Assembly: GCA_017505525.1 (NCBI GenBank)
Contig: JAFVPB010000015.1
Coordinates: 26-64,025 of the forward strand
From: Clostridia bacterium
Lineage (GTDB): Bacteria > Bacillota > Clostridia > UMGS1883
Direction: 5' to 3'
DNA: 64,000 nucleotides
Shown here: piece after piece, positions 11,121 through 43,497 of the stretch
How the letters are laid out: each line of letters begins with the position of its first letter
Position numbering within the stretch: the stretch's first letter is position 1
Program-made: the position numbers and the translations under genes
Notes under the pieces: model-generated
Databases searched by the model: none
The model's input: the letters and a program-made list of their open reading frames with translations, nothing else
Told to the model about the DNA's origin: nothing

Positions 11121-11132
11121 CTTGTCCTCCTG

Positions 11133-12586: not shown

Positions 12587-12587
12587 A

Positions 12588-14717: not shown

Positions 14718-14892
14718 TTTCTCCCCCCTCGTAAATTCTGGTTTTACTTGTGTTTATTTCTATGATATTTGAACTGTCGAGATGCGTAAGTATATACTTC
14801 AGCTCTTCTTCGTTCGCTCTCAGGTAATTTTCTATTACCCTTATTTTTTCTTCGGTGCTTTTATCCTGTAAATCTGAAAGTGAATGAAACAT
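14707..14892 (-). CDS. hypothetical small phage protein
   Basis: The likely start is the ATG (MFHSLSDLQ) after an 'agaggag' RBS. Confidence 0.3.
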   Translation of the reverse strand: MFHSLSDLQDKSTEEKIRVIENYLRANEEELKYILTHLDSSNIIEINTSKTRIYEGGENEL

Positions 14893-14905
14893 TTTTTCTC
14901 CTCTT

Positions 14906-16677
14906 CTACACAATAAATTCGCGTACTATTGATAAGATATTGCATCGTCCTCTGCCCGAAATCCTAAGCATCATTTCGTGGCATTTTCCTACGCCAATGG
15001 GAATTGTGATATGTTCTTTATTTTTTCCGTAACGCACCATAATTTGCTCCCACGTGCCGTTATCTCTTTTTATTTCGACCTTTATCCATGAGTTTTCAAA
15101 AAGCTCAGCAGATACCCACATTTTAGTATATTTCTTTTTAAGATGATAAAACTCTCTGAAAGGCTGAAGCGTTACAAACCACTCATCGTCTGTGCAGTCC
15201 TCCTCTGAAAAACGGTAGAGCCCGCAATCGTCTATTGCATATAGCTCTCCGTTGTGATAAGAAAATGCCTTTATTTTGGTATTGCCACAGATTGACCACA
15301 ACGATTTTTTCATATCATAAGCAAACAGCTTCCTGCCATCCGTTGTGTCGGCGGCAAGATAATATATTTTCCCATTAGTGCCACCGGAGCAGTTTTCCAT
15401 TTTTATATTTTCAATTTTCCCCGAAATCAAACTTGGAAGACCTCCGCAAAAAGAGTAAACACCGCCAATTCCTGAATAAAAAATTTCCGACCCGATGTTT
15501 ACAAGGCTGTTTTTTCCGTGTGCATCTATCCCGCTCCCTATGCTTTCCACAAGCTGAAAATTAGATGGTTTATCCCCATAAAGCTTAAAAATGGAATCGC
15601 TTTTAAAGAAAACGCAATAATTTCCATAAGAAACACACGCGTTAAAATCTTCCCTTGAATTCGCACTCACGCTGTAGCTATCGGTAGAAAGCATTCTGTA
15701 GACAAAGAAATTATACGGATCACCAAGTTTCGAAGCATAAATGGTATTTTTTTCGCACCCCCACAGTCTGTTATTGTGCACGCACACACACGAAAAATCA
15801 GGTATTTTTCTCTTCACTGTAATTTTTCCTGTTTCCTGAGCCTCACTGAGTGCTTCCTCTTCAAAAACAAGTGTATGGTCCCCTACTTCCTTTACCACAA
15901 GAATTTTATTATTTGCTTCATTTTCGCATCCCGAAATTTCAATGCCATCGCCTTTTCTTATTTTTGAAAAAACATTTTCGTATTCATTTCTTAACGTATA
16001 AAGATAAGTTTTCAGCGTATATTTGCCTGCATCATCTTTTTTTGATGAAAGCACTTTTCTGTACTGACTGTATGTACACTTATCTTTAATTATTGTTCCT
16101 GGTAAAATTTCCTCTGCGAATACAGGGGCATATGTTCCGAGTTTTATGCTTCCTTCCGTTATTTCCGCCGAAGAATAAACTGAAAGTTTTTCATTTTCAA
16201 AAAACACAAGCTCATCTTCCACAACATCTGTAACCCATTTTTCTTCAGGAACAGATACAGAGTTTAACCCAAATCTTACTGTGGTATCTGAAAAAGTGTA
16301 TTCCGCCTCTAAGCTTTCAAAAACTTTTGTTTCCGTATTATAGCAAACCTTGTCGGGGAAAATTAAAATCATATTTCCCATTACGGCAATTTCCTTTTCT
16401 CCCGAAGTCAAATTTCCAACCTTTTCTTTCCCATAGAATAAGGCTCCGCTATCTATAACGCATTCCTTTTGCGAAAAAGCAATGCCCTGCGGTGATTTAT
16501 AAAATTCATCCCTGATAAGCTTGTTTGATTGTGTTAAAAAAGGAAAGTTTTTATGCGAGATTCCGCTGCACTCCCTTATCTCGCCCTCTAAGTAATTGTT
16601 TGTAGTATTAAGGCCTCCAAAACCCGATATTTCTTTTTTATATTTTCTGGTTTGTAAAATATTAGGTAGCTTCATTT
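14906..16677 (-). CDS. phage structural protein (putative tail/adsorption apparatus component)
   Basis: 590 aa from the ATG at 16677 (MKLPNILQ) after an 'aaaggag' RBS. The position in the late operon is the only evidence; no motif was recognised. Confidence 0.4.
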
Positions 16678-16685
16678 TTTCTCCT

Positions 16686-17036
16686 TTAAATTCTGATTTC
16701 GCACTGTGGAGGAATATGTGTGCGGATATAGTTTTTTCTGAATTCCTCGTATGCACGCATAAACATCGCAGCACTAACGGCATAAGATGCCGTTTCTCCA
16801 CTGTGAAAATCTCCCATTGCAATAATATAAAGCTCGTAAATGTTGTCGTACGGAGCTTTTGCTAAAAGCTCCGTTTCTCCGCTATCCGGAAATTCATATT
16901 TTTTGAACTGAGGTAAATGCATAGTTTCAAGTGCAATTTTTCCGTCGAGTTCGCTTATCCATTCTGACTTTTGTTCGTCGGTAAATGTATCGGGATGCAG
17001 CCTCATTGCCCTTTCAATAGCCTTATTAATTGTCAA
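16686..17036 (-). CDS. hypothetical phage protein
   Basis: The ORF overlaps its neighbours in the late operon. Confidence 0.35.
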   Translation of the reverse strand: MTINKAIERAMRLHPDTFTDEQKSEWISELDGKIALETMHLPQFKKYEFPDSGETELLAKAPYDNIYELYIIAMGDFHSGETASYAVSAAMFMRAYEEFRKNYIRTHIPPQCEIRI

Positions 17037-18135
17037 TCAGAATGCACTCCTTCCACTTTTCTCCATCGAAAATATAAATTCCGTTCTTTTCTTCACAAAG
17101 CTTTACTGCATGATCAGAATTAAATTCAGCATTTTCAACTAAGGTATCACCGCTTAAAACAAACATCGGTCGGTAGCCGTTTTTTTCCGTAGCTTTTACG
17201 CTTTCAAGTTCTCCCTGACTGTTAATTATTGCATTATTACTGCTGTAGAGACCTCTTGTCCAGTAAGCAGAGTATGTTCCGCCTGTAACCATTGCCCTTT
17301 TGGAATTTAGCGCGAAATACTCAAATTCTCCAAGTTCAACGCTTGTTGGCAGAAAAACCCTTCTTTTCCCTGTGCTTTTAACATCTATTTTCACAATCTT
17401 ATTCAAAAGATTTTTGCCTAGAAAACTTACATAGATTGATTCAAGAAACAAATCTGCAGTAGATAAAGCATACTCTGTTTTTCCCGCTCTGTCGAAGCAC
17501 ACTTCTTCGGGAAGAATTTCGTTTCTTAAAAGTGCAACCATTCCGTTACCTGTGTAATTCTTATCCACGATTATATAAGGGGTTTCAACTCCGTTTTCCA
17601 TAACAATCAGCTTGGTTCCCGTTTCCTGTTCTCCCAGCGTGATAGAGCTTTCTTTTTTTGTACTTATAAATACATCTCCGATGCGGGCATCTTCGGGAAA
17701 GCTTGGGGCAACAGCAATATTTCTTACACACAACTCTTCTTCATCCACAGAATAAGCTTTTACTTTTCCTGTGAATTCCCCGCCGTTTTTCTTCATAGCA
17801 TTATCAAAAAGTGAATCTGCATACTGAAACACATCGCATTTTTTCTCGTTTGAGTCGTATATAGATGAAATCATATCTCCCAGAGCATCTTTCCCTTTTT
17901 CCCCTTTGGGAATAAAAAAAGTTAAAAGAGGGTTTTTTATGTTGCTTGAATCAATTTCAACTCTTGCGTTCTCGTTATCTTCCACTGTAATTATTTCCTT
18001 TATGGAAAACACCGGAGTATATCCACTTACACCCTGTGCTCCCTGCACACCTCTTTCCCCTTGTGCACCTCTTTCGCCCGAACTTCCTGCTTCACCTTTT
18101 TCGCCTTTTATTCTTCCAAGATTAAAGCTTGCCAT
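17026..18135 (-). CDS. phage protein with N-terminal collagen-like G-X-Y repeats (head or tail fibre)
   Basis: N-terminus 'GEKGEAGSSGERGAQGERGVQGAQGVSGYTP', followed by a globular domain. Confidence 0.5.
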   Translation of the reverse strand: MASFNLGRIKGEKGEAGSSGERGAQGERGVQGAQGVSGYTPVFSIKEIITVEDNENARVEIDSSNIKNPLLTFFIPKGEKGKDALGDMISSIYDSNEKKCDVFQYADSLFDNAMKKNGGEFTGKVKAYSVDEEELCVRNIAVAPSFPEDARIGDVFISTKKESSITLGEQETGTKLIVMENGVETPYIIVDKNYTGNGMVALLRNEILPEEVCFDRAGKTEYALSTADLFLESIYVSFLGKNLLNKIVKIDVKSTGKRRVFLPTSVELGEFEYFALNSKRAMVTGGTYSAYWTRGLYSSNNAIINSQGELESVKATEKNGYRPMFVLSGDTLVENAEFNSDHAVKLCEEKNGIYIFDGEKWKECILIDN

Positions 18136-18147
18136 AAAATCAACTCC

Positions 18148-18411
18148 TTAAATCTTTCTGGCTTCAGCTTCGGCAAAAAATTCGCTTGATTTGTTATCCA
18201 TAAGTCTTGCTGTTTTAATATCCTGTCGCATTGAATTTTCTAAAACATCGGCAAACTTCTTTTTGATTTTAACCTTCTTGCCTCTCTGAATAACACAGCT
18301 TTCCCCGTTTACTGCCACAAATACATTATCCTTATAATCCTTGTTATCCCTGAAAAGCTCTATTTCGACCAAAGCTTCCTTTTCTTTTGATTTCATATTT
18401 TTTGCTGCCAT
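18148..18411 (-). CDS. hypothetical phage protein (head-associated?)
   Basis: 87 aa, immediately downstream of the major capsid gene, with an 'aggaaagga' RBS. Confidence 0.35.
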   Translation of the reverse strand: MAAKNMKSKEKEALVEIELFRDNKDYKDNVFVAVNGESCVIQRGKKVKIKKKFADVLENSMRQDIKTARLMDNKSSEFFAEAEARKI

Positions 18412-18566
18412 TTTTTACATCCTTTCCTGTTTTTACTTTCCCTTAGTTTTTTTGCAGGGGCGGACACCCTCACATTTCCGCAAAATACAGATCCCACGGG
18501 CGGATGTAGGCATCCGCCCCTACAATTAATAATTAAATCAGTTTTTACTGAAAAATATTTTTAAAG

Positions 18567-18830
18567 TTCCAAGTGATTTAAACATCCTCTTACCAGAAGA
18601 GGATAGGAGAAATTGCTTGAAACGGACAAACTGAGCCAAGCTATGCTTGGGTTACCCGAAGGCGTACACAGGTACGCCGAGAGGCGAAGTTTGTTCGTAG
18701 CAAAAGGCTTAATAATAAAGAAAAATCGAATTCAGTGAGATTTTTCAACCAAAACACAATGTTTCATTACTTTGCGCTTATTTCTTTATATCTATCTTTG
18801 CCTTTTGCGTTCCAAGTAATTTAAACATCC
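18567..18830 (+). repeat. interspersed structured element, copy 2
   Basis: Flanked by 21-bp direct repeats 'TTCCAAGTRATTTAAACATCC' (18567-18587 and 18810-18830). It carries the 5' module 'ATAGGAGAAATTGCTTGAAACGGACAAACTGAG' and the 3' module 'GAGGCGAAGTTTGTTCGTAGCAAAAGGCTTAATAATA...GAAAAATCG..GATTTTTC...GCCTTTTGCG'. Confidence 0.6.
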
Positions 18831-18832
18831 CC

Positions 18833-20179
18833 TTACCCAAATGTGCTTGCTGTTTCTACCCTTACCATGTATGGTTCAACAAGTCTAACCGTTGCTTTTG
18901 TAGCCTTCCAGCCTGCTGTTGCACGCTGATTGAGCGGGTCAGCAGTTCCTGCTGAGCCAAGCTGCTTGATTATATGTGTGAGGCCACCGCCCACAATTTC
19001 TGTTGTGCCATAAGCATTTTCACCGAAAATAAGTGTTGAATAAACATCTCTGCCCTTGTATCCTGCTTCACCGGGGTAAATAACCATTCCTGCTGAAATT
19101 GTATTTTTGGGTGCCTTTGCAAGATAAAGAGCCTTTTTATCTGCATCGATACCTGAAATTTCAAGCACTTCGGCATCACTTTCAGAATAGATAATCTGAA
19201 TTTTTCCGCCTGCAAGTCGCTCTGCATCTTCCAGAGTAATTTCTTCCTTAATTTTTAATTCAAATGTTGATGATGTTCCGCAGCCCTCTGCAAGTGTTGG
19301 GTTGCTATCGAGAACACTGTAGGAAGAAGCTGTAAGTTCACGCGACTGCGCACAAAGATCTTCTGCATGGAAAACCTTCGCTTCACTTGATTCCACAAAG
19401 CGAACATTTTCAATCTTACCGATTTCGCCCTGATAAATACCCTCGGGATCGGAATATGTTTTAACGTTAATCCACTTGGGATCACTCATAAGGTCGTATG
19501 CTGTATCAGGGTGAATAATACCCACATAGCTGCCATCGATAGTTTCGGCACTCATCTTCTTAAGATAGCGCACTGCCTTTCTGACAGCGTCGACCGTAAG
19601 ATAGTGATTTCCGCTTTCTTCTCCTCCGTTTAAAAGTCCTCTTTCATCAACCTGACCTTCGCTGTACTGCACATTTGTACCGCCTGAAAGCACCTCACGG
19701 GTGATTGTATCAAGAGTTCTTCCCGCCTGACCACCAAGAAGCTTTGTAGCCTGTACAAGATTGTTGTCAACTGCAGTAAGCATAAGCATATCTGAAAGCT
19801 CAATAAATCCACCATACTGCTTAACATCTGCAGAAACAACGCCCATATCAAGCTTCTGTCCTGATGGGGTAACGCCCTCTGCAAGAGGTGTTGTCATTTT
19901 GGGAAGCGGGTCGTACTTTCTGAATTCTATTGTCTTACCGTTTCCCTTCGGAATAGGGCACTTCTGTCCAAACTGGTCATGGACAAGTTTAGGCTCTGCC
20001 ATGTCAATAAGATAATCCGAGTAATATGTTCTCATTTCCGCACTTAATCCACCGTTTTCACCGTAAGGAGTGAATGCGCCTGTTGTATTATTAGCAATAC
20101 CTGCCGTTGTGTTTACAGTGTCGCCTGCAGCAAAAAGCTGCAAGTCAATAATTCTTTCTGTCTGTTTCAAATTTTTCAT
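18833..20179 (-). CDS. phage major capsid protein
   Basis: 448 aa in the canonical position downstream of portal and scaffold. The N-terminus 'IIDLQLFAAGD' resembles the L27/Prp cleavage motif. Confidence 0.7.
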   Translation of the reverse strand: MKNLKQTERIIDLQLFAAGDTVNTTAGIANNTTGAFTPYGENGGLSAEMRTYYSDYLIDMAEPKLVHDQFGQKCPIPKGNGKTIEFRKYDPLPKMTTPLAEGVTPSGQKLDMGVVSADVKQYGGFIELSDMLMLTAVDNNLVQATKLLGGQAGRTLDTITREVLSGGTNVQYSEGQVDERGLLNGGEESGNHYLTVDAVRKAVRYLKKMSAETIDGSYVGIIHPDTAYDLMSDPKWINVKTYSDPEGIYQGEIGKIENVRFVESSEAKVFHAEDLCAQSRELTASSYSVLDSNPTLAEGCGTSSTFELKIKEEITLEDAERLAGGKIQIIYSESDAEVLEISGIDADKKALYLAKAPKNTISAGMVIYPGEAGYKGRDVYSTLIFGENAYGTTEIVGGGLTHIIKQLGSAGTADPLNQRATAGWKATKATVRLVEPYMVRVETASTFG

Positions 20180-20197
20180 CCTTTCCTTTTACATTTA

Positions 20198-21028
20198 TCA
20201 GAAGCTTATTTTTTCGCCTCTTGCCGCACGTTTTGCAATCTCTTTGCGGTCTTTTTTGCTAAGCCTTGAAATATTATTTTCGAAAATCATTCCGCTTGTA
20301 GAGCGCGAGCCGTTTTCAATGGGGCGCACTCCCTTAGATCTGATTGAATCCACAATTTTCTTCTCAGCGTTTTTTGCATTCTTTTCAAGAAGCGTATCCA
20401 TATTTGTAACTTCGTAGGCATGCTTTACGCTTACTCCCACCCTGATAAGGCGTACAAATTCAGGATTTTTAAGCTGCTCTTTAAAATCGAAATCGCTGTA
20501 TTCCTTTTTTGTTTCTTCAACCTCAGCGCGAAGCTTTTCTGCTCTGGCCTTCGACTTTTCGTCTCTTTCGCTGTTCTCTCTCATCTTCTTAAGATAAGCG
20601 TTCTCTGCAATCAGTCTCCTGATAATGTCTTCGTATTTGTTTTCATTGTTGTTTTTGGTGTTTTCCATCTCGCCTGTTATCTCCTTTTCAAGCTTTTGTG
20701 CATTGTTATCATCAATGTTGTACTTTTTCATAAGCAAGTTTATGATATGTTCGTTTTTGTCGAGAGTTTCTTTCAACTTTTTCACCTCCTTGAATCTGCG
20801 GTCGATAATTTTTTGCACTCTTTGAGCAAATTGATTTTTAAATTTGCCGCTTATAAGCTTTTCAAACTCCGCATTTTTTTCTTTTTCGCTTTCGGCGTCA
20901 AAGCCTTCTTTTTCTTCGCCCGTATGCAGTTTGCCTGTTTCTGCAGTTTTTTCGGCATCTATACCTTCCCTTTGCTGCGCGCTTTGCTCGGGGATTGCAT
21001 GCTTTTGTTCTTTTTTCTTCATTGTCAT
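20198..21028 (-). CDS. phage scaffolding protein
   Basis: Highly charged, alpha-helical, coiled-coil-like 276-aa protein lying between the portal/Prp genes and the capsid gene. Confidence 0.55.
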   Translation of the reverse strand: MTMKKKEQKHAIPEQSAQQREGIDAEKTAETGKLHTGEEKEGFDAESEKEKNAEFEKLISGKFKNQFAQRVQKIIDRRFKEVKKLKETLDKNEHIINLLMKKYNIDDNNAQKLEKEITGEMENTKNNNENKYEDIIRRLIAENAYLKKMRENSERDEKSKARAEKLRAEVEETKKEYSDFDFKEQLKNPEFVRLIRVGVSVKHAYEVTNMDTLLEKNAKNAEKKIVDSIRSKGVRPIENGSRSTSGMIFENNISRLSKKDRKEIAKRAARGEKISF

Positions 21029-21339
21029 CTTTTCCTCTCAGTTTTAACTATCTTAATGTTTTCGGGAAATTGTCTTGCAAGCATCGTGAATCCTTCAAGC
21101 GCCATTTTATATGCTCCTCGGCATTCACGCCCTCCTGAAAAGCTGATTTCTCCAAGCCCTTTCTGGGTATTTGTTTCAAGCGAAGTAACAAGGGCATCCT
21201 TTTCCGCTGCTGCCACTAAGGAATAGTATAAAATACTCACAGCACTGCAAAGAATATCTTCTCCCTTTGAATACATAGCGTGCCCTTTTATATTTACCTT
21301 AAAATTATTTGCCCTTTTAACTGCCTGAATTTCTATCAT
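21025..21339 (-). CDS. Prp-like cysteine protease (ribosomal-processing protease family, DUF464), phage-encoded
   Basis: 'KGHAMYSKGEDILCSAVSIL' matches the Prp His/Cys catalytic dyad region 'GHAGY..G.DIVCAAVS'. It is 104 aa, the typical Prp size. Confidence 0.65.
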   Translation of the reverse strand: MIEIQAVKRANNFKVNIKGHAMYSKGEDILCSAVSILYYSLVAAAEKDALVTSLETNTQKGLGEISFSGGRECRGAYKMALEGFTMLARQFPENIKIVKTERKR

Positions 21340-22961
21340 ATTGCTTCCTCTCTTTCGGCTATCTGTATGTCTCGTATCTTTGCTTCTATGCCCGCTTTGC
21401 CCTCAAAATCCATAAGCTCAAGAGCGCAAAGTGCCTGTTCTTTATATTCAGGATTAAAAAAACCAAGACCAAAAAGCTCCTTTGCCATTTCGTTTTGCGA
21501 TAGCCTGCTGTATGGACTTTTCTTTTGAGCTTTCACACTGATATCAAAAACAGGTTTTCTGAAATATTCATCAGATTCTCCCTGCCCCTTAAGTTTTTCA
21601 TTACTGTAATCTGAAAACGTGTATTCACCTGAACTGTCTGCAATTCTGAAAGAGCGAAGCTCATCGTAAAACTGACGGATAAGCTCTATACAAAGGTAAT
21701 TTATCTTTGAAAATGCCCTGTAGGTAGATTTAAGCATATCTCTGCTTGTTTTACTTCCTGCCTCCTGAAGTGCAGCAATTGCAGATGCTGCCGTTACTCC
21801 GCCCTGGGTTGTTCCGCGTGAAACATCATTGTTCGAGCTTGTTTCCTTAAGTTCTTCAATTTTCATTTGAAGAATACTTATGCAAGATTGCGGCACCTGT
21901 GAAATCTGAATTTGGCGCAGTCTTTCTTCGTTTATATCACCCTCAACGTGAACAATCGGTTTTCTCCAATCGAGAAATTCCCCTTCGTTTATTCCTGCAC
22001 TCACCTTTGCAAAATACCTCGGTTTGGCACACATTATTGCGTTTTCAAGTATCGCCTGATTAAGCTTATCTATATACATCTGCGGATTTTTCGTTACTGC
22101 AATGAATCCAAATCCCGTGGGCGTACCCTCCTCGGGAAAAAGGGTATCGAAAATTATTGGGTATTCCCCATGGTCGTACCAGCCTTTTTCCTCGTATTCT
22201 TTATGATTTTCCGATGCAAATAAAACAGTATCTCCCACAAACTTGCAGTAATGAAGATTAACTCTGCCATTCTTTTTCACTTTATAGTACCAGTCCACAA
22301 TAGGGATTTTGTCTGCTATGTCCACATTATCATCGTATATGTACTGTTTAACATCAATTGTGCCTCCGTCCAACTTTCCGCGGAGCACCGGATATTCTTT
22401 TTCAAGCACATCTCCATCACACAAATCCACAATAAACAGATTACGGCTTTTCTGAATATCAGTAACACCCGGCTCCCAGAAAATATTTAGTAAATCAAGC
22501 TTTTTAATCTGTATATCACCAAGACCATTTTCAAGCTCACTGTTCCAGAAAACTCCCATAGCACTCGTTCCGTGCTTAAGCTTGTACCACCAGCAATCGG
22601 AATAAATATCCTCGTAATTGTTGTGCTCAAGAATGCACGGAAGAATACCCGACAGCCGCTTTGCTTCCTCGTAATCGTTTTTTTCCCTTGGAAGAATACT
22701 TGCCTCAGGGAAATTATCCATGGCATCGGCGTGCTTATTGATAAGCGAATTAAAAAGCCACGCACTGACGGCTTCTCCCTGCCCTGAATCTTTACGCGAG
22801 GAGTCCATTTCCCTATGGCGAAGTTTCCACCACTGTTCGTCCTCAACTATTCTCTCTTCGAGGCTTGTTTTGGCTTCTTTATATTTCTTAAGCTTTATTG
22901 CCGCCTCTTTAACTTCTTCTTTTCCTATTTTTTTATGGAAAACACTTTCTTTCTGCTTCAC
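21336..22961 (-). CDS. phage portal protein
   Basis: 541 aa between the terminase and the scaffold/capsid genes, which is the canonical gene order. Confidence 0.65.
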   Translation of the reverse strand: MKQKESVFHKKIGKEEVKEAAIKLKKYKEAKTSLEERIVEDEQWWKLRHREMDSSRKDSGQGEAVSAWLFNSLINKHADAMDNFPEASILPREKNDYEEAKRLSGILPCILEHNNYEDIYSDCWWYKLKHGTSAMGVFWNSELENGLGDIQIKKLDLLNIFWEPGVTDIQKSRNLFIVDLCDGDVLEKEYPVLRGKLDGGTIDVKQYIYDDNVDIADKIPIVDWYYKVKKNGRVNLHYCKFVGDTVLFASENHKEYEEKGWYDHGEYPIIFDTLFPEEGTPTGFGFIAVTKNPQMYIDKLNQAILENAIMCAKPRYFAKVSAGINEGEFLDWRKPIVHVEGDINEERLRQIQISQVPQSCISILQMKIEELKETSSNNDVSRGTTQGGVTAASAIAALQEAGSKTSRDMLKSTYRAFSKINYLCIELIRQFYDELRSFRIADSSGEYTFSDYSNEKLKGQGESDEYFRKPVFDISVKAQKKSPYSRLSQNEMAKELFGLGFFNPEYKEQALCALELMDFEGKAGIEAKIRDIQIAEREEAI

Positions 22962-23512
22962 CCTTTTTCCTCCTTAATATCGGGCAGTATTACAACTCCC
23001 GATTTTTCATTTTCTTCATCTTGTTTTTCTTTGTGCTTCGCCTCTTCAATTTGTAGTTTCCTTTCATCAAGAGGAGATACAATTCCATACATAACGCTTT
23101 TTATCTGTTCGAGCGACTCAAGCGCCTTTATTGCCGAGCCTAACGATTTCATATCAATTTTATTGAAAATCTGCTCTTCAGTAACAGTGGTGCCGTCGCT
23201 TCCCTTTTCTTTTATGAGATAGCGCCTGAACTGATCTTTGTCGCTAACGGCTTCATCAAGAATTCCCGAAAGCTTATTTGCAATATCAAGCTCCTTCGAG
23301 AGCTTTATTGCGGCAATATATGCGGCCTTATCGGCACACTTTTCCATCACGCTCCCAAGATATTCCTGCCTTGCCTCCTGCCATCTTTCTATCTGATAAT
23401 GACGATAAAGCGTTGCAGGATGTATCCCGTGTTTTTTACTGAGTGCCGCTGCCGATATATCGCTCGTTACAAATTCTGTTTTAAGAGCATTCCAATCATA
23501 TTTTTTCTTCAT
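22958..23512 (-). CDS. phage HTH-domain protein (possible small terminase subunit / packaging protein)
   Basis: N-terminal HTH 'ISAAALSKKHGIHPATLYRHYQ' and an acidic coiled-coil C-terminus. It lies between the large terminase and the portal. Confidence 0.4.
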   Translation of the reverse strand: MKKKYDWNALKTEFVTSDISAAALSKKHGIHPATLYRHYQIERWQEARQEYLGSVMEKCADKAAYIAAIKLSKELDIANKLSGILDEAVSDKDQFRRYLIKEKGSDGTTVTEEQIFNKIDMKSLGSAIKALESLEQIKSVMYGIVSPLDERKLQIEEAKHKEKQDEENEKSGVVILPDIKEEKG

Positions 23513-23523
23513 TTTCCCCTCCG

Positions 23524-24954
23524 CTACCTTATTATTGTTTTTCCGTATTGTGCGTATTCTTCTGTGTTAAGAGGGTTGTAGATTACCTGAGGTGCTTTTA
23601 CCGGTGGCGGATTGATGGGATTTTCCATTGCAACATATCTTACTTCGTCATAGATATGGTCTTCTGCCTGAGTATCGATATCTTCAACATCGCTTGCACT
23701 ATACACAAGGGCGGGAATAGTCCTTATAAAATTCTTGCAGGTAGAAAAAACATAAAGCATCGGAATCCCGCGTTCGTCAAACGCAAGACGGTTATGCAGC
23801 TGCATTTTTCCCGCCATTCGGGTGTTATCGGCTTTTTCAAAATAAACTCCTGCCCTCTCCATCATTGATGCCACACTCTCCCCACGGCTTTCATCAAAAA
23901 TTGATGGATCGGCAATTCCCGTAACGTAACGTCCTTTAAGATTAATGTCTTCTTTTTCCACCCTTGATATATTTTTTGCTATTTCCAATGGTTCCCATCG
24001 CACCCCCTCGTTGGGAGTTCCCGTGCAGCCGTAAAGTTCCCTTATCCGATACATTCTTCCATCGTGGTCAACCGCATACCAACCCACAGAAAACGGTCTT
24101 GAATAGCCAAAGTCAAATCCGCGGTATATTTTCCACGAAGCCGGTACCCGAAATGGCTCTATCACGTGAGTATCAATATGCGTTTTATAGCCATCGGGAT
24201 TATTCTTCCACTCTGTAAAAACCTGACCCGAAAAGCTGTCCCAGTCTCCGTATAAAAGAGCTTTTCTTTCATTTTCAGGAAGAGAAGCCAGCCTCGTTAT
24301 ATATTCAGGGTCGTTACGAAGAAGAATTTTATTATCAAACACGCTCGACGGCACAAATATTCTTGATCTCTGCCTTTTCTCGCTGTGTCCGTCGGGAAAT
24401 ATTATATTAATATCCTCGTAAATTGTTGTCATTGGCGGTGCAGGAGTTATAAATCTCTCCTTTACCCAGCCGTGGCCAACTCCTCCGGGGTTTGCCTGTG
24501 CCCTTATATAGCACCTTGTACCGGGACCGTTTGGTCTGTTACGACTGAAAAGATAACTGTATTCATCCCAGGTAAAGTGTGTAAGCTCGTCAAAATCTAT
24601 AAAGTCGTACCTTTTTCCCTGATAGTTTGTTCTGTCTTTGGTGTGTTGCATTGCCCCAAAATATATTTTTGCTCCGCTTTTAAATGTCCAACAGTGCTTT
24701 TGTTCATTATATTTCGCATCGGGAAATGCACTTTTATAAATCTCGCGACTCCTGTCGATTAATTCTGAAAGCTGAGGATACGTTTTTCTTAATATTAACC
24801 CCCTGTAGTGAGGGATATTAACCTGTCTTAAGGCTTCTGCTAATGCACAGTCGCTTTTTCCCCCACCGGCGGCGCCACCGTAAAGAGCCTCATTTTCAAA
24901 ACGCTCCATAAAAATCTTTTGCCTTGGCTGAGGCGTCCATATTACGTTTTTCAT
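23524..24954 (-). CDS. phage terminase large subunit
   Basis: Walker A 'LYGGAAGGGKSD' and a C-terminal nuclease region with conserved acidic residues. 476 aa. Confidence 0.85.
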   Translation of the reverse strand: MKNVIWTPQPRQKIFMERFENEALYGGAAGGGKSDCALAEALRQVNIPHYRGLILRKTYPQLSELIDRSREIYKSAFPDAKYNEQKHCWTFKSGAKIYFGAMQHTKDRTNYQGKRYDFIDFDELTHFTWDEYSYLFSRNRPNGPGTRCYIRAQANPGGVGHGWVKERFITPAPPMTTIYEDINIIFPDGHSEKRQRSRIFVPSSVFDNKILLRNDPEYITRLASLPENERKALLYGDWDSFSGQVFTEWKNNPDGYKTHIDTHVIEPFRVPASWKIYRGFDFGYSRPFSVGWYAVDHDGRMYRIRELYGCTGTPNEGVRWEPLEIAKNISRVEKEDINLKGRYVTGIADPSIFDESRGESVASMMERAGVYFEKADNTRMAGKMQLHNRLAFDERGIPMLYVFSTCKNFIRTIPALVYSASDVEDIDTQAEDHIYDEVRYVAMENPINPPPVKAPQVIYNPLNTEEYAQYGKTIIR

Positions 24955-25208
24955 ATGTTTTCACATATTTCCAGAATATAATTCCCCTCTTTGTCTTTTG
25001 TTGCAAAAAGCCTGTAATTCCCAAGAACATTCTTCACATCGTCTGCGCTTATCGTTCTTTTTCCTCCCTGTTCTTTTACAAGCATTACAATATTTGCCGC
25101 TGCACAGTCAAGAAGCTGGCGCATAGCCTCAATTTCTTCCCTTAGCTCCCCTATAAGCTTTTTATCGTCGGCGATTTTCTTATCACGCCTTTTAATTTCG
25201 TTATTCAT
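24951..25208 (-). CDS. hypothetical phage protein (coiled-coil)
   Basis: 85 aa, overlapping the terminase start. Confidence 0.3.
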   Translation of the reverse strand: MNNEIKRRDKKIADDKKLIGELREEIEAMRQLLDCAAANIVMLVKEQGGKRTISADDVKNVLGNYRLFATKDKEGNYILEICENI

Positions 25209-25817: not shown

Positions 25818-26429
25818 ATGAAATTACAAGACAGAATTAAAGAACGTCGCCGCGCACTTGGGCTAACACTTCTTGAGGTAGCAGATGCTCTTGGCGTGAA
25901 AGAAGCCACCGTGCAAAGATACGAAAGCGGAGAAATAAAAAATTTAAAGCTTGAAACAATAAATTCACTTGCAAAGCTTTTCAGATGCTCTCCCTCTTAT
26001 CTTGTGGGGTGGGATTTTGAAGATTCACTTCCTCCCCAGGTCATGGAAATAAAAAACGAAGAAGTGCCTATGGTAGGCGAAATTGCCGCCGGAAAACCCA
26101 TTCTTGCAAATGAATTTGTTGAATACTATTCACCTCTTAAGGATACAGGTGCCGATTTCTGCCTTAAGGTTAAAGGCGATTCTATGATTGGCGCCGGAAT
26201 AACCGATGGTTGTACCGTTTTTATCCACAGGCAGGATATTGTGGAAGACGGTGAAATTGCCGCAGTGCTTATTGATGACGAAGCAACACTTAAAAGGGTG
26301 TATATATCTGAAGATTCTATAACTCTTGTTGCTGAAAATCCCAAATACAAGCCAATGATATATTCAGGCGAGAAATGTAGTGGCATTCGTATTCTGGGCA
26401 AAGCCGTTTCGTTTATGTCTGCCTTATAA
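25818..26429 (+). CDS. phage CI-like repressor (XRE-family HTH + S24 LexA-like peptidase domain)
   Basis: N-terminal HTH 'LGLTLLEVADALGVKEATVQRYESGE' and C-terminal S24 'KVKGDSMIGAGITDGCTVFIHRQ...LKRV' with a Ser/Lys dyad. Confidence 0.8.
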   Translation: MKLQDRIKERRRALGLTLLEVADALGVKEATVQRYESGEIKNLKLETINSLAKLFRCSPSYLVGWDFEDSLPPQVMEIKNEEVPMVGEIAAGKPILANEFVEYYSPLKDTGADFCLKVKGDSMIGAGITDGCTVFIHRQDIVEDGEIAAVLIDDEATLKRVYISEDSITLVAENPKYKPMIYSGEKCSGIRILGKAVSFMSAL

Positions 26430-30914: not shown

Positions 30915-31262
30915 ATGTCATTTAAACGTACCGACAGGATATCCGAAGAAATAAAAAAAGAATTATCAAGTATTATCCGCGATCTTAAAGATCCTCGCAT
31001 CCCTATGATGACGAGTGTTGTAAGCGTTAATGTAACAAACGATCTGCGCTATGCAAAAGCCTATATCAGTGTTATGGGCAGCGACGACGAGAAGAAAGAT
31101 GCTATAAAAGCTCTTTCTTCTGCCGCAGGCTTTATAAGGCGCGAAATCGGCGGAAGAGTTAAGTTAAGATGTGTGCCTGAATTCACCTTTGTGCAGGATA
31201 CTTCTATAGAATATGGCGCGCATATTAACGACCTCTTAAACAAAATTCAAGGGGATGTTTAA
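30915..31262 (+). CDS. rbfA: ribosome-binding factor A
   Basis: 115 aa, 'RISEEIKKELSSIIRDLKDPR', the typical RbfA KH fold. Confidence 0.9.
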   Translation: MSFKRTDRISEEIKKELSSIIRDLKDPRIPMMTSVVSVNVTNDLRYAKAYISVMGSDDEKKDAIKALSSAAGFIRREIGGRVKLRCVPEFTFVQDTSIEYGAHINDLLNKIQGDV

Positions 31263-31493
31263 ATTCTCCAGAACGCAAAAAGGCGAGAATAATCAAAATT
31301 CAGAATGCTTATAAGCCTAAACTGTTTATAATTCGGTTGAAAAATCCAGTTTTTCGATTTTTCTTCGTTTTTAATCCTTTTTGCTACGAACAAACTTCGC
31401 CTTCGAGGTATACCAATACATCTTTGGCTCAGTTTGTCCGTTCTGAACAATTTCTCCTATCCCCTTTTTTTATGGGGATGTTTAAATTCTCCA
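31251..31493 (-). repeat. interspersed structured element, copy 3 (minus orientation)
   Basis: 20-bp direct repeats 'GGGGATGTTTAAATTCTCCA' at 31251-31270 and 31474-31493. The first overlaps the last codons and stop of rbfA. The 5' and 3' modules are the same as in copies 1 and 2 but reverse-complemented. An internal 63-codon ORF (31259-31450) starts with TTG after AGGAGA. Confidence 0.6.
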
Positions 31494-31517: not shown

Positions 31518-32471
31518 ATGTATAAAAAAATTTCCAAACATCTTTTTTCGTGCAAATCAGTTGCACTTTTTGTTCACGTTAATCCCGACTGGGATTGCAT
31601 TGGAAGTGCCTTGGCACTGAGAAGTGCTCTGCGCGGAAAAAACATTAAATGCGATGTTTTCACAGAAAAAGAGCTTTCAAAGCATTTAAGCTTTATGGAA
31701 AATGATGTTATTGTGTTTTCCGAAGAAAGCGCCATGCCCGATTACGAATGCTTTTGTGCAATCGATGTGGGCACTCCGTCGCGTTTGGGCGCATGGGGCG
31801 ATTTCTTCACCAGAAAAGAAAACACAGTTTGTATTGACCACCATTTATCCAGCGGACCATTTGCTTCTCTTTCAGTTATTGAAACTGAAAGAAGCTCTAC
31901 GGGTGAGCTTGTTTTTGAAATACTTTCTTCTTTAAAAATTGAAATAACAAAAGAAATTGCAAGCTATCTTTACTGTGCAATTTCTTCAGATACAGGCTCT
32001 TTCCAGTATTCAAACGTGAAACCAAGAACTTACGAGATAATCATTTCTCTCACCAAAGCAGGTATCGACACATCTTACCTTTCGAGTATGCTTTACGAAA
32101 GAAAAAGCCTTACTCAGCTTTATCTTGAAGCCGAGGCTATTAATTCTTTAAAGCTTTACCACGATGGAAAGATTGCAACTGCACACGTAACTAATGAAAT
32201 GCTTGAAAAGTATAATGCCAAAAGAAGCGACACCGAGGCACTTGCCTCTCTTCCCCGCAGTATCGACGGGGTAATGATAAGCGCATTTTTCTCGGAGCTT
32301 CCAAATGGAGATATCCGCGTAAACTTAAGAGCACAGGGCGATTACGATATCGAGCCTGTTGCCCGCTTTTTTGGTGGTGGCGGTCATAAAAAGGCAGCCG
32401 GATGCACACTTGAGGGCGTGGATATGGAAAAAGCACAGAATCTTGTTGTAGGTGAATTAATTAAATTATGA
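31518..32471 (+). CDS. nrnA: DHH-family phosphoesterase (bifunctional oligoribonuclease / pAp phosphatase NrnA-like)
   Basis: DHH motifs 'FVHVNPDWDCIGS' and 'IDHH', plus a C-terminal DHHA1 'GGGGHKKAAG'. Confidence 0.8.
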   Translation: MYKKISKHLFSCKSVALFVHVNPDWDCIGSALALRSALRGKNIKCDVFTEKELSKHLSFMENDVIVFSEESAMPDYECFCAIDVGTPSRLGAWGDFFTRKENTVCIDHHLSSGPFASLSVIETERSSTGELVFEILSSLKIEITKEIASYLYCAISSDTGSFQYSNVKPRTYEIIISLTKAGIDTSYLSSMLYERKSLTQLYLEAEAINSLKLYHDGKIATAHVTNEMLEKYNAKRSDTEALASLPRSIDGVMISAFFSELPNGDIRVNLRAQGDYDIEPVARFFGGGGHKKAAGCTLEGVDMEKAQNLVVGELIKL

Positions 32472-34233: not shown

Positions 34234-34266
34234 TGTAGGGGAGGGTCTCTGTGCCCTCCCGTTTTT
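34234..34266 (+). terminator. rho-independent terminator after ribF (member of a repeated terminator sequence)
   Basis: GGGAGGGtctctgtgCCCTCCC followed by GTTTTT. Near-identical 32 bp recur at 43464-43497. Confidence 0.6.
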
Positions 34267-40317: not shown

Positions 40318-40447
40318 ATTATCACTCCTCTACTTTAGTATATGCATTCTCCCTGAAATCGCCCCTGATTTGACAAAAATGCTGTATTGCTGTATAATAC
40401 AGTGTGAATTTTCAAAATTTTTATATGGAGATTATTTTATGAAAAAA

Positions 40448-41842
40448 TTTATATCATTAACCCTTGCGGTTTTACTTGTGCTTTTAAGTTTTCAAAGCGC
40501 ATTTGCCGCGCCAAGAATTCCCGTGTATAAAGTTGGGAATGTTTTATACTTTTTCGATAAATCATCGGGAACAATCACTGGCTTTGCGGGAGAGCCGAAA
40601 GACCTTATTATCCCTACAGAACTTAACGGACATAAGGTAGTTTCAATCGGAACGGGAGCATTTTCATCCTGTCCAACGCTTTCAACGCTTTCAATTCCCT
40701 ATGGCGTATGCTCGATTTCTGCAAATGCGTTTTCGGGATGCACCAATCTTATGTCTGTTGAGATAGGGGCCACTGTTTCGTTTATAGGCGATAGCGCTTT
40801 CAGGGATTGTACATCTCTTTCACGCGTAACATTTTTAGGCTTGCTTGATAACATTGAATCAAATGCTTTTTACAACACTCCGTGGATTACAAATTCCACC
40901 GATGAATTTGTAATGCTTGGCGGAACAACACTTATTAAATACAACGGAACAAGTGAAAGAGTTGTTGTGCCCGCGGGCGTAAAAAAAATTGAAGCTAATG
41001 CCTTCAGCTGGAACCCCTCTATTAAAGAGGTTGTTCTCCCTTATGGCTTGCAGAAAATAGGCGACAATGCCTTTGTGCACTGCTACAGTCTTGAAAAAAT
41101 AGAAATTCCGTCTACCGTTGCATATATCGGCACAGGTGCCTTTGACGATACAATATGGCTCAACAATCAGGAGGGCAACTTTATTTGTGTTAACGGTATA
41201 CTTATTGCCTACCGCGGAAATGATAAAAGCGTAATAATTCCTGATGGCATAACGGGTATTGGAAGCGGTGCCTTTATGTCGAATGAAAGTCTTATGTGTG
41301 TTACCGTTCCTGAAAGTGTTCTATATATTGATACCCTTGCATTTTCAGGATGTTCAAACCTTATCTGTGCTAATATTTCCCATTCTGTAGAATGGATTGA
41401 CGAATATGCTTTTTCGGGATGCACCAAGCTTTCTCTCTGTGTAACAGAGGGCACCTATGGCGAAAATTACGCCCAGAGTATGGAAATAATCATAAGCCGT
41501 CCTGTCCCTGCATATTACAACTGGAATCAGGTTATTTTCGACGGAGTCTATCCTCTTCTCCTGAATGGAACAGCTTATATTCCTCTTCGTGCCGTTTTAG
41601 AGGATTTGGGCTACACCGTTTTGTGGGATAATATATCAAAAAGCACTAAATGTGTTAAAGGAGATTATTATTTTATAATAGAGCAGAGCGGTAGAGTGCT
41701 TATCAATTCACAAATTGCATGGTTCACAGCGGAACCAATCAATATAAAAGGAAAAACGCTCTATCCGTCAAACATTGTGAGTCTTCTTACGGGAAACACT
41801 ATAGAATGGAACGAGCAGTCAAAGAGTATTATGATATATTAA
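40448..41842 (+). CDS. secreted BspA-type leucine-rich-repeat protein with C-terminal copper-amine-oxidase N-terminal-like (stalk) domain
   Basis: Signal peptide 'LLVLLSFQSAFA', 8-9 BspA-like LRR units ('IGDSAFRDCTSL', 'IEANAFSW...') and a C-terminal 'YIPLRAVLEDLGYTVLWDNISKS'. The start is the ATG at 40448 after a GGAG RBS. Confidence 0.65.
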   Translation, partial: FISLTLAVLLVLLSFQSAFAAPRIPVYKVGNVLYFFDKSSGTITGFAGEPKDLIIPTELNGHKVVSIGTGAFSSCPTLSTLSIPYGVCSISANAFSGCTNLMSVEIGATVSFIGDSAFRDCTSLSRVTFLGLLDNIESNAFYNTPWITNSTDEFVMLGGTTLIKYNGTSERVVVPAGVKKIEANAFSWNPSIKEVVLPYGLQKIGDNAFVHCYSLEKIEIPSTVAYIGTGAFDDTIWLNNQEGNFICVNGILIAYRGNDKSVIIPDGITGIGSGAFMSNESLMCVTVPESVLYIDTLAFSGCSNLICANISHSVEWIDEYAFSGCTKLSLCVTEGTYGENYAQSMEIIISRPVPAYYNWNQVIFDGVYPLLLNGTAYIPLRAVLEDLGYTVLWDNISKSTKCVKGDYYFIIEQSGRVLINSQIAWFTAEPINIKGKTLYPSNIVSLLTGNTIEWNEQSKSIMIY

Positions 41843-41941
41843 TGTTTAAATTCTTCATGCCGCAAAAAGGCAGCAGATATAATACTATAAAATTAAAAAG
41901 GGGATGTTTAAGGCATCCCCTTTTTTGTTAAGGAGGCAGTT

Positions 41942-43468
41942 ATGCGTAAGCTATTAAAAATTCTATTCAGCCAGATTGTTATAATCAGTCTTCTTTTAAT
42001 TTTACAAATTGCTCTCATCGTCTACTCTGTTTTAAGGCTTAGCCAGTACTTTATTTATTTTGATTTATTTCTTAAGCTTATAAGCTTAATTGTCGTTATA
42101 TTTATCATGAATCGCCACTCCAATCCTATTTATAAGCTTGCGTGGGTTGTTCCTATAGTAAGTTTCCCACTTCTGGGAGGATTTTTCTATCTCTTTATAA
42201 TGGGTCAGCGTCAAACAAAAAATTTCTTTAAAAGACTTTCCACTATTGAAAAGGAAACCACAAAAGATTTTGTGCAGGATAGTAATGTTTTTAACGAAAT
42301 TGCCCAGAATCACCCCGAAAGAAAATCTACTATCACCTATATAAACAAGGTTTCAGGTCTTAATGCCTATCGCCTTGATGAAGCGCAGTATTTTTCTGTG
42401 GGAGAGGAAAAATGGAAAGCACTTCTGTGCGAGCTTGAAAAAGCGGAAAAATATATCTTTCTTGAATATTTTATAATTAAAGACGGCACTATGTGGAAAA
42501 GCATTCTTGAGATATTGAAGCGCAAAGCAAAAGAGGGAATTGATGTGCGCGTTATGTACGATGGAATGGGAAGCATGGAAAACTTTCCTATATCATACCC
42601 TAAAACACTTGAATCCTATGGAATAAAGTGCCGTGTTTTCAGTCCTTTCACGCCTTTTCTTTCTGCCCTTCAGAATAACCGCGATCACAGAAAAATTGCC
42701 GTTATAGACGGAAAAACCGCTTTCACCGGCGGAATAAACCTTTCAGATGAATATGTTAACATTGACTACAAGCACGGCCATTGGAAGGATATGAGCGTAA
42801 TGATTAAAGGCGAGGGTGCGTTCAGTTTTGCCATTATGTTTCTCCAGCTTTGGTCTATGGTAAGCGGTGAAAAGCCTAACCCCGCGCTCTACCGCCCTGA
42901 ATACAGCGCACCGCAAGGCACAGGCTATGTGATGGGTTATGCCGATATACCTCTTGACAAATACCAGACGGGAGAGTTTGTGTATCTTGATATAATCAAC
43001 AAAGCAAAAAAATATGTGTATATAACCACCCCCTATCTTATCCTCGACCACGAAATGGTGGTGGCACTTACAAATGCTGCCCTTTCGGGGATTGATGTTA
43101 AGATAATCTGCCCGCTCGCAGTCGACCACTGGTATGCGCGCGCAGTGGCTTACAGCTATTATAAAGAGCTTATCGAAAGCGGCGTGAAAATATACGAATA
43201 CACCCCCGGCTTTATCCACGGAAAAACTTTCTGCTCCGATGGAGAAATCTGTGTTGTGGGAAGCATCAATCTTGATTACCGAAGCTTATATCTTCATTTT
43301 GAATGTGCTTCTTTGTTTATTGATTCTCCTGTTGTGCAATCAGTCTACAGCGATTTTAAGGAAACACTTAAAAAGTGCCGCCTTATAACCAAGGAAGAAT
43401 GCGACAGTATCCCCCCACACAAAAAGATACTCTATGCAATACTCCGACTATTCGCACCTCTTATGTAG
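41942..43468 (+). CDS. cls: cardiolipin synthase
   Basis: Two N-terminal TM helices and two PLD HKD motifs ('HRKIAVIDG', 'HGKTFCSDGE'). Confidence 0.9.
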   Translation: MRKLLKILFSQIVIISLLLILQIALIVYSVLRLSQYFIYFDLFLKLISLIVVIFIMNRHSNPIYKLAWVVPIVSFPLLGGFFYLFIMGQRQTKNFFKRLSTIEKETTKDFVQDSNVFNEIAQNHPERKSTITYINKVSGLNAYRLDEAQYFSVGEEKWKALLCELEKAEKYIFLEYFIIKDGTMWKSILEILKRKAKEGIDVRVMYDGMGSMENFPISYPKTLESYGIKCRVFSPFTPFLSALQNNRDHRKIAVIDGKTAFTGGINLSDEYVNIDYKHGHWKDMSVMIKGEGAFSFAIMFLQLWSMVSGEKPNPALYRPEYSAPQGTGYVMGYADIPLDKYQTGEFVYLDIINKAKKYVYITTPYLILDHEMVVALTNAALSGIDVKIICPLAVDHWYARAVAYSYYKELIESGVKIYEYTPGFIHGKTFCSDGEICVVGSINLDYRSLYLHFECASLFIDSPVVQSVYSDFKETLKKCRLITKEECDSIPPHKKILYAILRLFAPLM

Positions 43469-43497
43469 GGGAGGGCCTCTGTGCCCTCCCGTTTTTT
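43464..43497 (+). terminator. rho-independent terminator after cls (second copy of repeated terminator)
   Basis: GGGAGGGcctctgtgCCCTCCC followed by GTTTTTT, near-identical to 34234-34266. Confidence 0.6.

Follow-up and report, generated by a model that had tools for sequence, protein, structure and literature searches.

In a 64,000-nucleotide stretch of a Clostridia bacterium contig (JAFVPB010000015.1; hereafter the window), the gene rbfA is followed by a short folded element that carries a 20-bp direct repeat at its two ends. We found that the repeat is the 5′-terminal segment of the element itself, here called X, which is restated after the 3′ strand of the same unit, here called C3. The element is real, structured, and present or absent between relatives, and the length of its repeat is variable. 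We propose, with a probability of about 0.6, that it belongs to an undescribed family of short, structured, non-autonomous interspersed repeats, and that the 20-bp repeat is the unit's own X restated after C3.

The sequence GGGGATGTTTAAATTCTCCA occurs exactly twice in the window, both times on the plus strand, at 31251-31270 and 31474-31493, as described in a first-pass annotation of this DNA. Two or more matches were obtained in none of 100 shuffles, even if up to three mismatches were allowed. The final codons of rbfA, GGG GAT GTT TAA (31251-31262), fall within the first copy, which does encode the end of RbfA, G-D-V-stop, as that annotation had read it. The locus is organized as follows:

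30915-31262, plus strand: rbfA, 30S ribosome-binding factor A (list of open reading frames, ORFs; homologues with PF02033).
31249-31464, plus strand: element copy 3, in the orientation of the upstream gene (nhmmer, profile positions 2-244, E = 2.6e-45).
31251-31270, plus strand: X5′, the first repeat copy and 5′-terminal segment of element copy 3 (exact repeat; family alignment).
31275-31284, plus strand: 5′ strand of helix P1, GCAAAAAGGC, of which GCAAAAAGG pairs with its partner CCTTTTTGC at 31376-31384.
31383-31401, plus strand: the invariant 19-nt core GCTACGAACAAACTTCGCC, which holds the 5′ strand of helix P2 (31386-31396; partner AGTTTGTCCGT at 31431-31441).
31440-31464, plus strand: C3, the 3′ strand GTTCTGAACAATTTCTCCTATCCCC, complementary to X (profile match 31427-31465, E = 3e-11).
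31474-31493, plus strand: X3′, the second repeat copy, restating the first 20 nt of the element 9 nt past C3 (exact repeat).
31518-32471, plus strand: nrnA-like gene of the DHH family, starting 24 nt past X3′ (ORF list; orthologues with PF01368/PF02272).

The exact 19-mer core GCTACGAACAAACTTCGCC is present in all three full copies of the window and in at least 111 stretches of GTDB species-representative genomes. Among the matches listed, all carriers were metagenome-assembled genomes (MAGs) labelled Clostridia, Oscillospiraceae, Acutalibacteraceae or Ruminococcus and represented dozens of species; the core was often found several times per MAG, and many matches lay at contig ends. The core-bearing records that name a source came from goat, sheep, deer or buffalo gut and rumen samples. 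Seventy copies were aligned over about 245 consensus positions. The unit is non-coding and measures about 215-260 nt, more in expanded variants. Read in the orientation of the upstream gene, it comprises X (about 25 nt; consensus example GGGGATGTAAAAAAAGTCCAGAAC, in this genome GGGGATGTTTAAATTCTCCAGAAC), helix P1 with a variable AT-rich loop, the P2/P3/P4 core, and C3. P1 is formed by GCAAAAAGGC with GCCTTTTTGC, and the variable AT-rich stretch inside it carries a small hairpin of its own. The junction and P2 are invariant (ACGAACAAACT with AGTTTGTCCGT) and include a conserved A.C mismatch. P2 is followed by hairpin P3, a conserved CCTTCGGG turn and the variable hairpin P4. Finally, C3 (GTTCTGAAnCATTTTTTCCTATCCCC) pairs to X through three short helices.

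The fold was evaluated from base changes across the 70 copies. Over the 23 pairs of P1 to P3, 97.9% of the cells held standard pairs and 91 cells were changed on both sides. The covariation score of these helices was 0.178 versus 0.057 in shuffles (0/500), and slid controls were paired at 16-40%. Changes on both sides occurred across the family in seven of the nine P1 pairs (RNAalifold and pair counts), and one-sided changes were nearly absent from P1 and P3. Because MAFFT lost the register of the X/C3 helix, this pairing was assessed by duplex energy: the duplex of X5′ with its own C3 averaged -20.7 kcal/mol, as compared with -16.4 kcal/mol with the C3 of other copies, and this cognate advantage of 4.3 kcal/mol was reached in none of 2000 permutations. 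The middle helix of X/C3 reads, for example, AAAAAAA/UUUUUU, AUUUAG/CUAAAU or AAAUU/AAUUU, and the outer helix GGGGAUG/UAUCCCC, with the variants GGGG/CCCC, GAGGCUG/CAGCCUC and GGGC/GCCC. Copy 3 folds well beyond shuffles on each strand (z = -4.8 on the plus and -7.3 on the minus strand). Its C3 closes the whole fold and has the downstream X copy as an alternative partner.

The first-pass annotation had taken repeat copy 1 as native rbfA sequence and copy 2 as its duplicate. This assignment is overturned by the family alignment, where copy 1 is the 5′ end of the element in the 70 aligned copies and co-varies with C3. The identical 20-mer also opens an element after an unrelated gene (protein end ...YYFHGK-stop) in MAG RGIG1868 (L059, 3941-3960). 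Among 120 RbfA homologues of 71-99% identity, the end QGDV was found only in the 99% identical one; the other C-termini read NKIK, NKLNSDN, NSDN, HDIGSNE and so on. The closest relatives available (L112-L114; RbfA 90% identical, DNA about 86-91%) have their own rbfA stop and no X5′. Their order is ...AAAATAAAG TAA, a GC-rich hairpin repeat, the 3′ strand of the element, TTTTAAAT, the 20-mer and then the same flank up to the nrnA start, so that repeat copy 2 is present without copy 1. The 20-mer is exact in L112 and L113 and differs by one base in L114. These data show that X is element sequence and not rbfA's.

Comparison of empty rbfA-nrnA junctions, which the same annotation had proposed as a check, gave a result that goes against its model. 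In four other relatives (L115, L118, L120 and L122; RbfA 87-88% identical) the rbfA-nrnA gap is 12-20 nt, with no family match and no copy of the 20-mer at these junctions; an att or target-duplication model expects one. Since repeat copy 1 belongs to the element, the three final codons of rbfA and its stop are contributed by element copy 3. Given the gap of 12-20 nt in relatives, about 235 nt were added to an otherwise tight operon junction. A metagenome collection was scanned both for the right junction of the rbfA locus and for its predicted solo-X allele, with zero matches in each case, indicating that the source organism is absent from the scanned collection.

Having another X after C3, a terminal redundancy of the unit, is characteristic of the family. 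Across the family, the direct X copy starts 5-22 nt past C3. Most copies have 9-14 nt of X-like sequence that begins 9-16 nt past C3 and serves as the 5′ arm of a perfect hairpin (for example GGAGGTGTAAAAAAAC-GAG-TTTTTTTACACCTCC), usually with a T-rich stretch after it. About 13 of the 70 copies have a longer direct repeat, such as those of 34 nt in L012, 33 nt in L047, 32 nt in L026, about 33 nt in L064, 29 nt in L071 and 28 nt in L021; the direct repeat of L096 reaches 43 nt, with mismatches. Searches with the full profile extended the partial second copy to profile positions 100-139 in L071, L064 and L047. Over the family, the repeated extent goes from about 9 nt to about 140 nt. Because this extent varies, neither a fixed-length staggered-cut duplication nor a single att core accounts for the repeat. 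The first-pass annotation was right in separating it from the short target duplications of classical insertion sequences (IS), the repeat being conserved element sequence of varying length. Its idea of a site-specific insertion with an att-like duplication of about 20 bp is only partly borne out: a single X is found at the capsid locus of two relatives (L127/L128, see below), but a length of 9 to about 140 nt leaves no fixed core.

The two X of one unit carry the same copy-specific variants (CTTGGAAC in copy 2, CCAGAGCGC in copy 1), and C3 is complementary to them. The mean score of a copy's own X against its flank was 11.5, as compared with 8.4 for the X of other copies and 6.6 for shuffled flanks. 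The alternative hairpin between C3 and X3′ is predicted at -10.4 kcal/mol in copy 3 and -12.2 kcal/mol in copy 2. Solo 5′ ends numbered 1 versus 87 full copies in 768 kb of comparison loci, a ratio biased by the choice of these loci for carrying the core. In the same 768 kb, about 6 stand-alone X-type hairpins were counted versus 31 linked to an element, and in MAG CAYUUO 2 versus 8.

The element is placed tightly with respect to genes. A co-oriented ORF (80 codons or more) has its stop inside X or at most about 10 nt before it in 53 of the 70 copies, and several of the remaining 17 lie too near the edge of their locus for this check. The next downstream ORF is convergent in 31 of the 70. A full element copy was also observed directly 3′ of the infB stop (L068, 1228-1483); as it follows infB, the same operon has been hit at another junction in another species. 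The infB-rbfA spacer itself varies from 46 to 200 nt among relatives (L120 1097-1201, L122 1001-1201). No recurrent neighbour gene emerged from all-against-all ORF clustering around the at least 111 loci, the clusters being generic ABC ATPases, response regulators and GTPases at varying distances. No ORF is kept between copies in any of them. No autonomous version was found among the insertions between the core and the 3′ strand, which are all non-coding and of 220-304 nt. A small ORF starting from an ATG in X (MFKFS...) was discarded, as X varies at this place (CTG, TTT, GCT) and the frame is not kept. The earlier statement that no recombinase is encoded in cis agrees with a Pfam scan of 40 window ORFs, which gave no recombinase, transposase or reverse transcriptase.

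Repeat finding and profile search gave an inventory of three full copies and three 5′-end-only (L-end) fragments in the window, a ratio of 3:3. Besides copy 3, these are:

18566-18834, minus strand: element copy 2 (nhmmer E = 5e-54), with X5′ at 18832-18809 and X3′ at 18589-18566.
1865-2316, minus strand: element copy 1, a long variant (nhmmer 2316-2157, profile positions 2-162, and 1955-1893, profile positions 178-243).
7784-7841, plus strand: L-end fragment without the core (nhmmer profile positions 2-59, E = 3e-6).
41842-41925, plus strand: body-less derivative, consisting of an L-end fragment (41842-41882), a hairpin with the X-like 5′ arm GGGGATGTTTAA, and a T-run.
About 53936-53965, plus strand: L-end fragment of a different subfamily (GATAAAATGCACAGACCGCATAAAG), overlapping the stop of the polysaccharide deacetylase ORF 53036-53944.

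Copy 2 directly follows the stop of a major capsid gene of the N4-gp56-like type (18833-20179), and its X5′ and X3′ are identical at 22 of 24 positions. That the core of the repeat flanks this copy in reverse complement, as first noted, was verified: GGATGTTTAAAT lies on the minus strand at 18576-18587 and 18819-18830. Copy 1 has an 18-nt direct repeat, CCAGAGCGCAAAAAGGCA, at 2298-2281 and 1882-1865, and its P3 is expanded by about 200 nt, as it is in L016, L081, L092 and L032. The fragment previously seen at 7785-7833 is the L-end-like piece 7784-7841 (hidden Markov model positions 2-59). It contains internal short duplications (CGCAAAAAGTT twice and AAAAAGTTCAG twice), which suggests a tendency to slippage or template switching at this end of the element. 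The hairpin AAAAAGGGGATGTTTAAGGCATCCCCTTTTTT, cited earlier as an unoccupied look-alike with the form of a terminator, is present at about 41893-41925 (-26 kcal/mol in context, z = -4.4) but is not isolated. It lies only 15 nt downstream of fragment 41842-41882, which abuts the stop codon of ORF 40370-41842, and this proximity makes the two together look like an element minus its body. The fragment at about 53936-53965 had been missed.

Several variant members were also recorded. The expansion of copy 1 (window 1956-2156, minus strand, ...GAGCGTCGCAAGGCTCGC...GGGGACCCCGAAAAGCAGAC...) is conserved and stands in for P3 in some copies, which come from different MAGs; it looks structured on its own and has no Rfam match. 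A non-coding insertion of about 300 nt (GGCGTACCTATGGCAAAGGGAACTCGAATCCC...) occupies the P3 loop in several copies of MAG CAYUUO, among them L040 (about 2640-2940) and L088 (about 45-350). At L027 (3176-3000), a divergent member has fully compensated P1 (TTCAAAGGC/GCCTTTGAA) and P2 (CACGAAAC/GTTTCGTG) helices, with a C.A mismatch close to the position of the family's A.C mismatch.

The boundaries of the unit were read from nine near-identical copies located at unrelated loci of MAG CAYUUO. Their left boundary is sharp at GAGGCTGTCGCATTTAG, and the right boundary lies past a hairpin, GGGGCTGTCG...CGACAGCCCC, whose outer arm forms an inverted repeat with the left end at 15 of 16 positions. In another MAG, JAZPYX, the right hairpins of two near-identical copies (L022, about 7830-7870, and L024) differ by an inverted loop, AAAAAAACGAGTTTTTTT versus AAAAAACTCGTTTTTTT. 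This is a flip/flop pattern such as arises when a hairpin primes its own copying or when the arms recombine.

A series of allelic states was found at the capsid locus of relatives whose capsid protein is 92-93% identical. L125 has a short X-like stub followed by the end of P2, C3, X3′ and the same flank, with different X types on the two sides. The element is deleted further in L124 and L126. In L127/L128, TAA-GGGAATGGATAAATTGCCCAGAAC is followed by the same flank, that is, by one X (profile positions 2-26, E = 0.003) without body. This single X ends where the X3′ of the window ends, and the window has 264 extra bases bounded by two X. Between L127 and the window, X differs at 7 of 24 positions and the flanks are about 95% identical. 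Because the X of L127 has diverged and the X types of L125 differ, the history of this locus is more complicated than one insertion or excision. The capsid gene itself belongs to a phage-derived cluster on the minus strand (7834-25000) that encodes an amidase, a holin, collagen-like/DUF6273 proteins, the N4-gp56-like major capsid protein, a P22-like portal protein and a large terminase. A Prp-type protease was seen in relatives, and no integrase was seen in the cluster. A LexA-like S24 repressor gene (25818-26429) adjoins it, and two oxidoreductase genes (11189-13430, gltD-like) sit in its middle.

Searches for known relatives of the element gave no assignment. Rfam 15 had nothing at gathering thresholds across the window, and permissive Rfam scans of copies 1 and 3 and of L022 yielded weak, chance-level matches only. 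A literature full-text search for the core sequences retrieved no paper, and keyword searches nothing relevant. A tRNA- or tmRNA-like origin was rejected, as ARAGORN found no such gene in the window, and so was a phage origin, since neither the core in IMG/VR nor copy 2 in a blastn search of GenBank phages gave a match.

Taken together, we favor a family that spreads, or once spread, via an enzyme acting in trans. The second X could then arise by copying past the unit length on a circular or tandem template, and snap-back would also make the hairpin. Other candidate origins are an insertion at a stop codon beside what an earlier copy had left of its 5′ end, with later homogenisation, and the recombination of one X with another. 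The likeness of X5′ and X3′ could be kept by selection, both being able to pair with C3.

Several observations weigh against this proposal. We found neither an enzyme nor a circular junction and, for either locus, no recent insertion whose empty site could be aligned exactly; mobility and mechanism are accordingly inferred. Where relatives have an empty rbfA-nrnA junction, their RbfA is no more than 87-88% identical and a base-by-base alignment of their spacers to the window is not possible, so that the exact pre-insertion sequence was not rebuilt. The longest repeats are identical, or one base off, for the first 30-33 nt and then only about 70-80% identical, which is better explained by insertion next to an older fragment together with homogenisation than by a simple over-run. 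Among the near-identical CAYUUO copies, the right-hand hairpin is more variable than the body, and could for this reason be target-derived. The single X without body at the capsid locus is what an att-type model predicts: att recombination, or deletion between repeats, would leave the L127 state, which keeps that rival alive. Furthermore, either strand may be the functional one, as RNA or as single-stranded DNA. The bottom strand, complementary to the upstream gene, folds more stably than the top strand in 68 of the 70 copies. Distinct single mismatches flanked by Watson-Crick pairs are of the A.C type in 16 cases versus 9 of the G.U type, and the conserved CUUCGG turn (cUUCGg-type) lies on the top strand. 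For the core domain, the bottom strand has -38.4 versus -29.9 kcal/mol for the top strand and is favored in every copy. Much of this advantage comes from two conserved positions; the P2 mismatch and its variants (GTCCGT, GTTCGT, GCCCGT) all pair on the bottom strand. No promoter-like site was predicted at copy 3 on either strand.

In an att-type explanation, X would be the crossover site of a site-specific recombinase or of homology-dependent recombination. A circular unit with one X would integrate Campbell-fashion into an X-like site, either a solo X or the 5′ arm of an X-type hairpin, to give X-body-C3-linker-X, and recombination between two X would excise it and leave a solo X or hairpin. 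We consider this unlikely, though a number of observations agree with it. At L127/L128 one X stands right after the capsid stop with the same flank, where the window has 264 nt more between X5′ and X3′, and the remnants in L125 have different X types on their two sides. Both X of a unit share copy-specific variants, and the perfect identity over about 30-33 nt followed by a fall would be expected if the downstream partner were an older resident fragment. Stand-alone X-type hairpins do exist (2 versus 8 element-linked in CAYUUO). However, solo X is so rare (1 versus 87 full copies in 768 kb) that it cannot be a general pre-existing target, and the empty rbfA-nrnA junctions have no X. The repeat length, 9 to about 140 nt (for example 18, 20, 24, 34, 43 and more than 100 nt), has no fixed core. 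Read from the sequence, X contains no dyad-symmetric recombinase arms, TTTAAA being the only dyad in the 20-mer. No recombinase was found near any of the at least 111 loci or among the 40 window ORFs scanned, and the L127 solo X, different at 7 of 24 positions, is not a simple excision product of the window allele. The att idea of the first-pass annotation was nevertheless partly right, in that X is the place of rearrangement and no enzyme is encoded nearby. A classical transposase duplication of the 20 bp at the rbfA end, made by a staggered cut around a miniature element, is contradicted and has hardly any probability left. Exact direct repeats do flank a repeated element, but the 20-mer recurs as a conserved part of the element at unrelated loci and in other genomes, it pairs with C3, and the repeat length varies across the family. 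Such a duplication would predict one GGGGATGTTTAAATTCTCCA in the empty site of a same-species strain (...AAAATTCAA-GGGGATGTTTAAATTCTCCA-ATCAGC..., with RbfA ending in GDV); four distant empty sites have no 20-mer, and a relative has copy 2 but no copy 1.

A different view is that the element, transcribed along with the upstream gene, acts as an RNA switch, in which pairing of C3 with X5′ closes the fold and frees X3′ for the terminator hairpin, the C3/X3′ pairing is the anti-terminator, and the core binds a ligand or protein. The repeat would then exist because the two X must both match one C3, as happens in the expression platform of an OFF riboswitch. The three-way co-variation of X5′, C3 and X3′, the C3/X3′ hairpin predicted in copies 2 and 3 (-12.2 and -10.4 kcal/mol) and the role of X3′, in most copies, as the 5′ arm of a hairpin with a T-rich stretch behind it are consistent with it. 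So are the invariance of the core in many species and the co-orientation of the unit downstream of a gene, by which sense transcription would be assured. We nevertheless hold it to be improbable. The unit is not in a 5′ leader, and a convergent ORF follows in 31 of the 70 copies, leaving nothing downstream to regulate. Many copies per genome and bursts of near-identical copies are not expected of a switch, the more stable fold is on the bottom and not on the sense strand, and window copies 2 and 3 have no 3′ arm of a terminator. X3′ equals X5′ also at bases that are unpaired with C3, as read from the sequence, and repeats of 100 nt or more are left unexplained. Somewhat less improbable, and still speculative, is a self-templating guided element, in which C3 would find X-like gene ends and a folded, probably bottom-strand, intermediate would be copied; the same speculation includes, as an alternative, a regulon in which the hundred or so copies of a genome would be structural switches next to stop codons, with one trans factor binding the core. 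In the self-templating case, target-primed or rolling copying would re-read the start of the element and often snap back, giving both the variable redundancy and the terminator hairpin.

The family that we propose shares features with several known systems. Like Correia/NEMIS, ERIC/IRU, RUP, BOX and the Bacillus cereus element bcr1, all of them structured miniature repeats of bacteria, it is short, non-coding, multi-copy and intergenic near gene ends. Elements of the miniature inverted-repeat transposable element (MITE) type are co-transcribed with their neighbours, as the unit would be, and are likewise foldable and without transposase in cis. A terminal inverted repeat is present in many family members (X5′ versus the outer right-hand arm, 15/16 in CAYUUO), and window copies 2 and 3 lack it and end in the direct X only. 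Differences from MITE-like elements are the lack of a fixed-length host duplication, a branched multi-helix fold in place of one terminal-repeat hairpin, an invariant 19-nt core over dozens of species, a restated 5′ end and the tight placement at stop codons. REP/BIME/REPIN elements offer a parallel as palindromic units 3′ of genes with a terminator or stabiliser role, which occur as hairpin doublets and are mobilised in trans by a single-copy gene, that of RAYT; mobilisation in trans is also proposed here, and the big X5′/C3 and small X3′ hairpins resemble two related tandem units. REPs are, however, simple palindromes of 20-40 nt with a GTAG head, whereas the present element is about 240 nt long with a conserved non-palindromic core.

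Integron attC sites also lie at or over the stop of a co-oriented ORF, and their outer helices are conserved in fold and not in sequence, with internal loops and a variable terminal structure. In both cases the bottom strand folds better, here by a weak margin, and short direct repeats are found at both junctions; the attC recombinase acts in trans. The outer helix of the element is of the GGGGAUG/UAUCCCC type and has no RYYYAAC/GTTRRRY boxes, its copies are dispersed among housekeeping genes and not in cassette arrays, its internal core is invariant, and no IntI was found. An OFF riboswitch or attenuator platform offers another parallel, since the 5′ strand of its closing helix resembles the 5′ arm of the terminator and both pair with the same 3′ strand. 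In contrast, the element stands 3′ of genes, often before a convergent gene, in tens of copies per genome and without Rfam match. Class C group II introns are tied to intrinsic terminator hairpins in a fixed orientation to the gene; the element, of about 240 nt, differs in having no domain V/VI, no GUGYG 5′ end and no reverse transcriptase, and in lying between stop codon and hairpin, not after the hairpin in gene orientation. Set beside IS200/IS605-type elements and their miniature derivatives, which have subterminal hairpins at both ends and no direct repeats, it has a hairpin at the right end only and does have direct repeats. Its orientation follows the neighbouring gene (two minus and four plus in the 64-kb window), and no tnpA/tnpB was seen in the window. 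A resemblance of ATGTTTAAAT to TTATGTTAAAT, which we take to be the XerD arm, was considered and rejected, as there is no conserved spacer or second arm on the required side for a Xer/dif site. An invariant core, a branched fold and a self-repeating end set the element apart from the well-known miniature repeats of bacteria.

Two further repeats of the window are unrelated to the element. A GC-rich hairpin repeat headed TGTAGGGG (for example TGTAGGGGAGGGTCTCTGTGCCCTCCCGTTTTT), which resembles GTAG-headed REP elements, lies at 34234-34266, at 43464-43496 and, on the minus strand, at about 18480-18525. In L112, whose rbfA-locus element lacks its 5′ part, the vacant place (about 733-760) is taken by a hairpin of this type, and another abuts the truncated X3′ in L124/L126. 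A direct repeat of 241 nt (55123-55363 and 60355-60595, 87% identical), with a partial third copy of 102 nt at 59054-59155, is located near genes with a copper amine oxidase N-terminal-like domain and near the end of spoIVB.

If the proposed family is real in this form, abundant uncultured Clostridia of gut and rumen would carry tens of copies per genome of an undescribed folded element. This element would rewrite the 3′ ends of genes, here that of rbfA, a ribosome maturation gene of an essential pathway, separate the genes of operons, and usually bring a terminator-like hairpin. Many contigs end inside it, so that it breaks assemblies, which matters for gene calling, operon prediction and the quality of MAGs. 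The core, the fold and the self-repeating end would then point to a trans-acting partner that could be sought directly.

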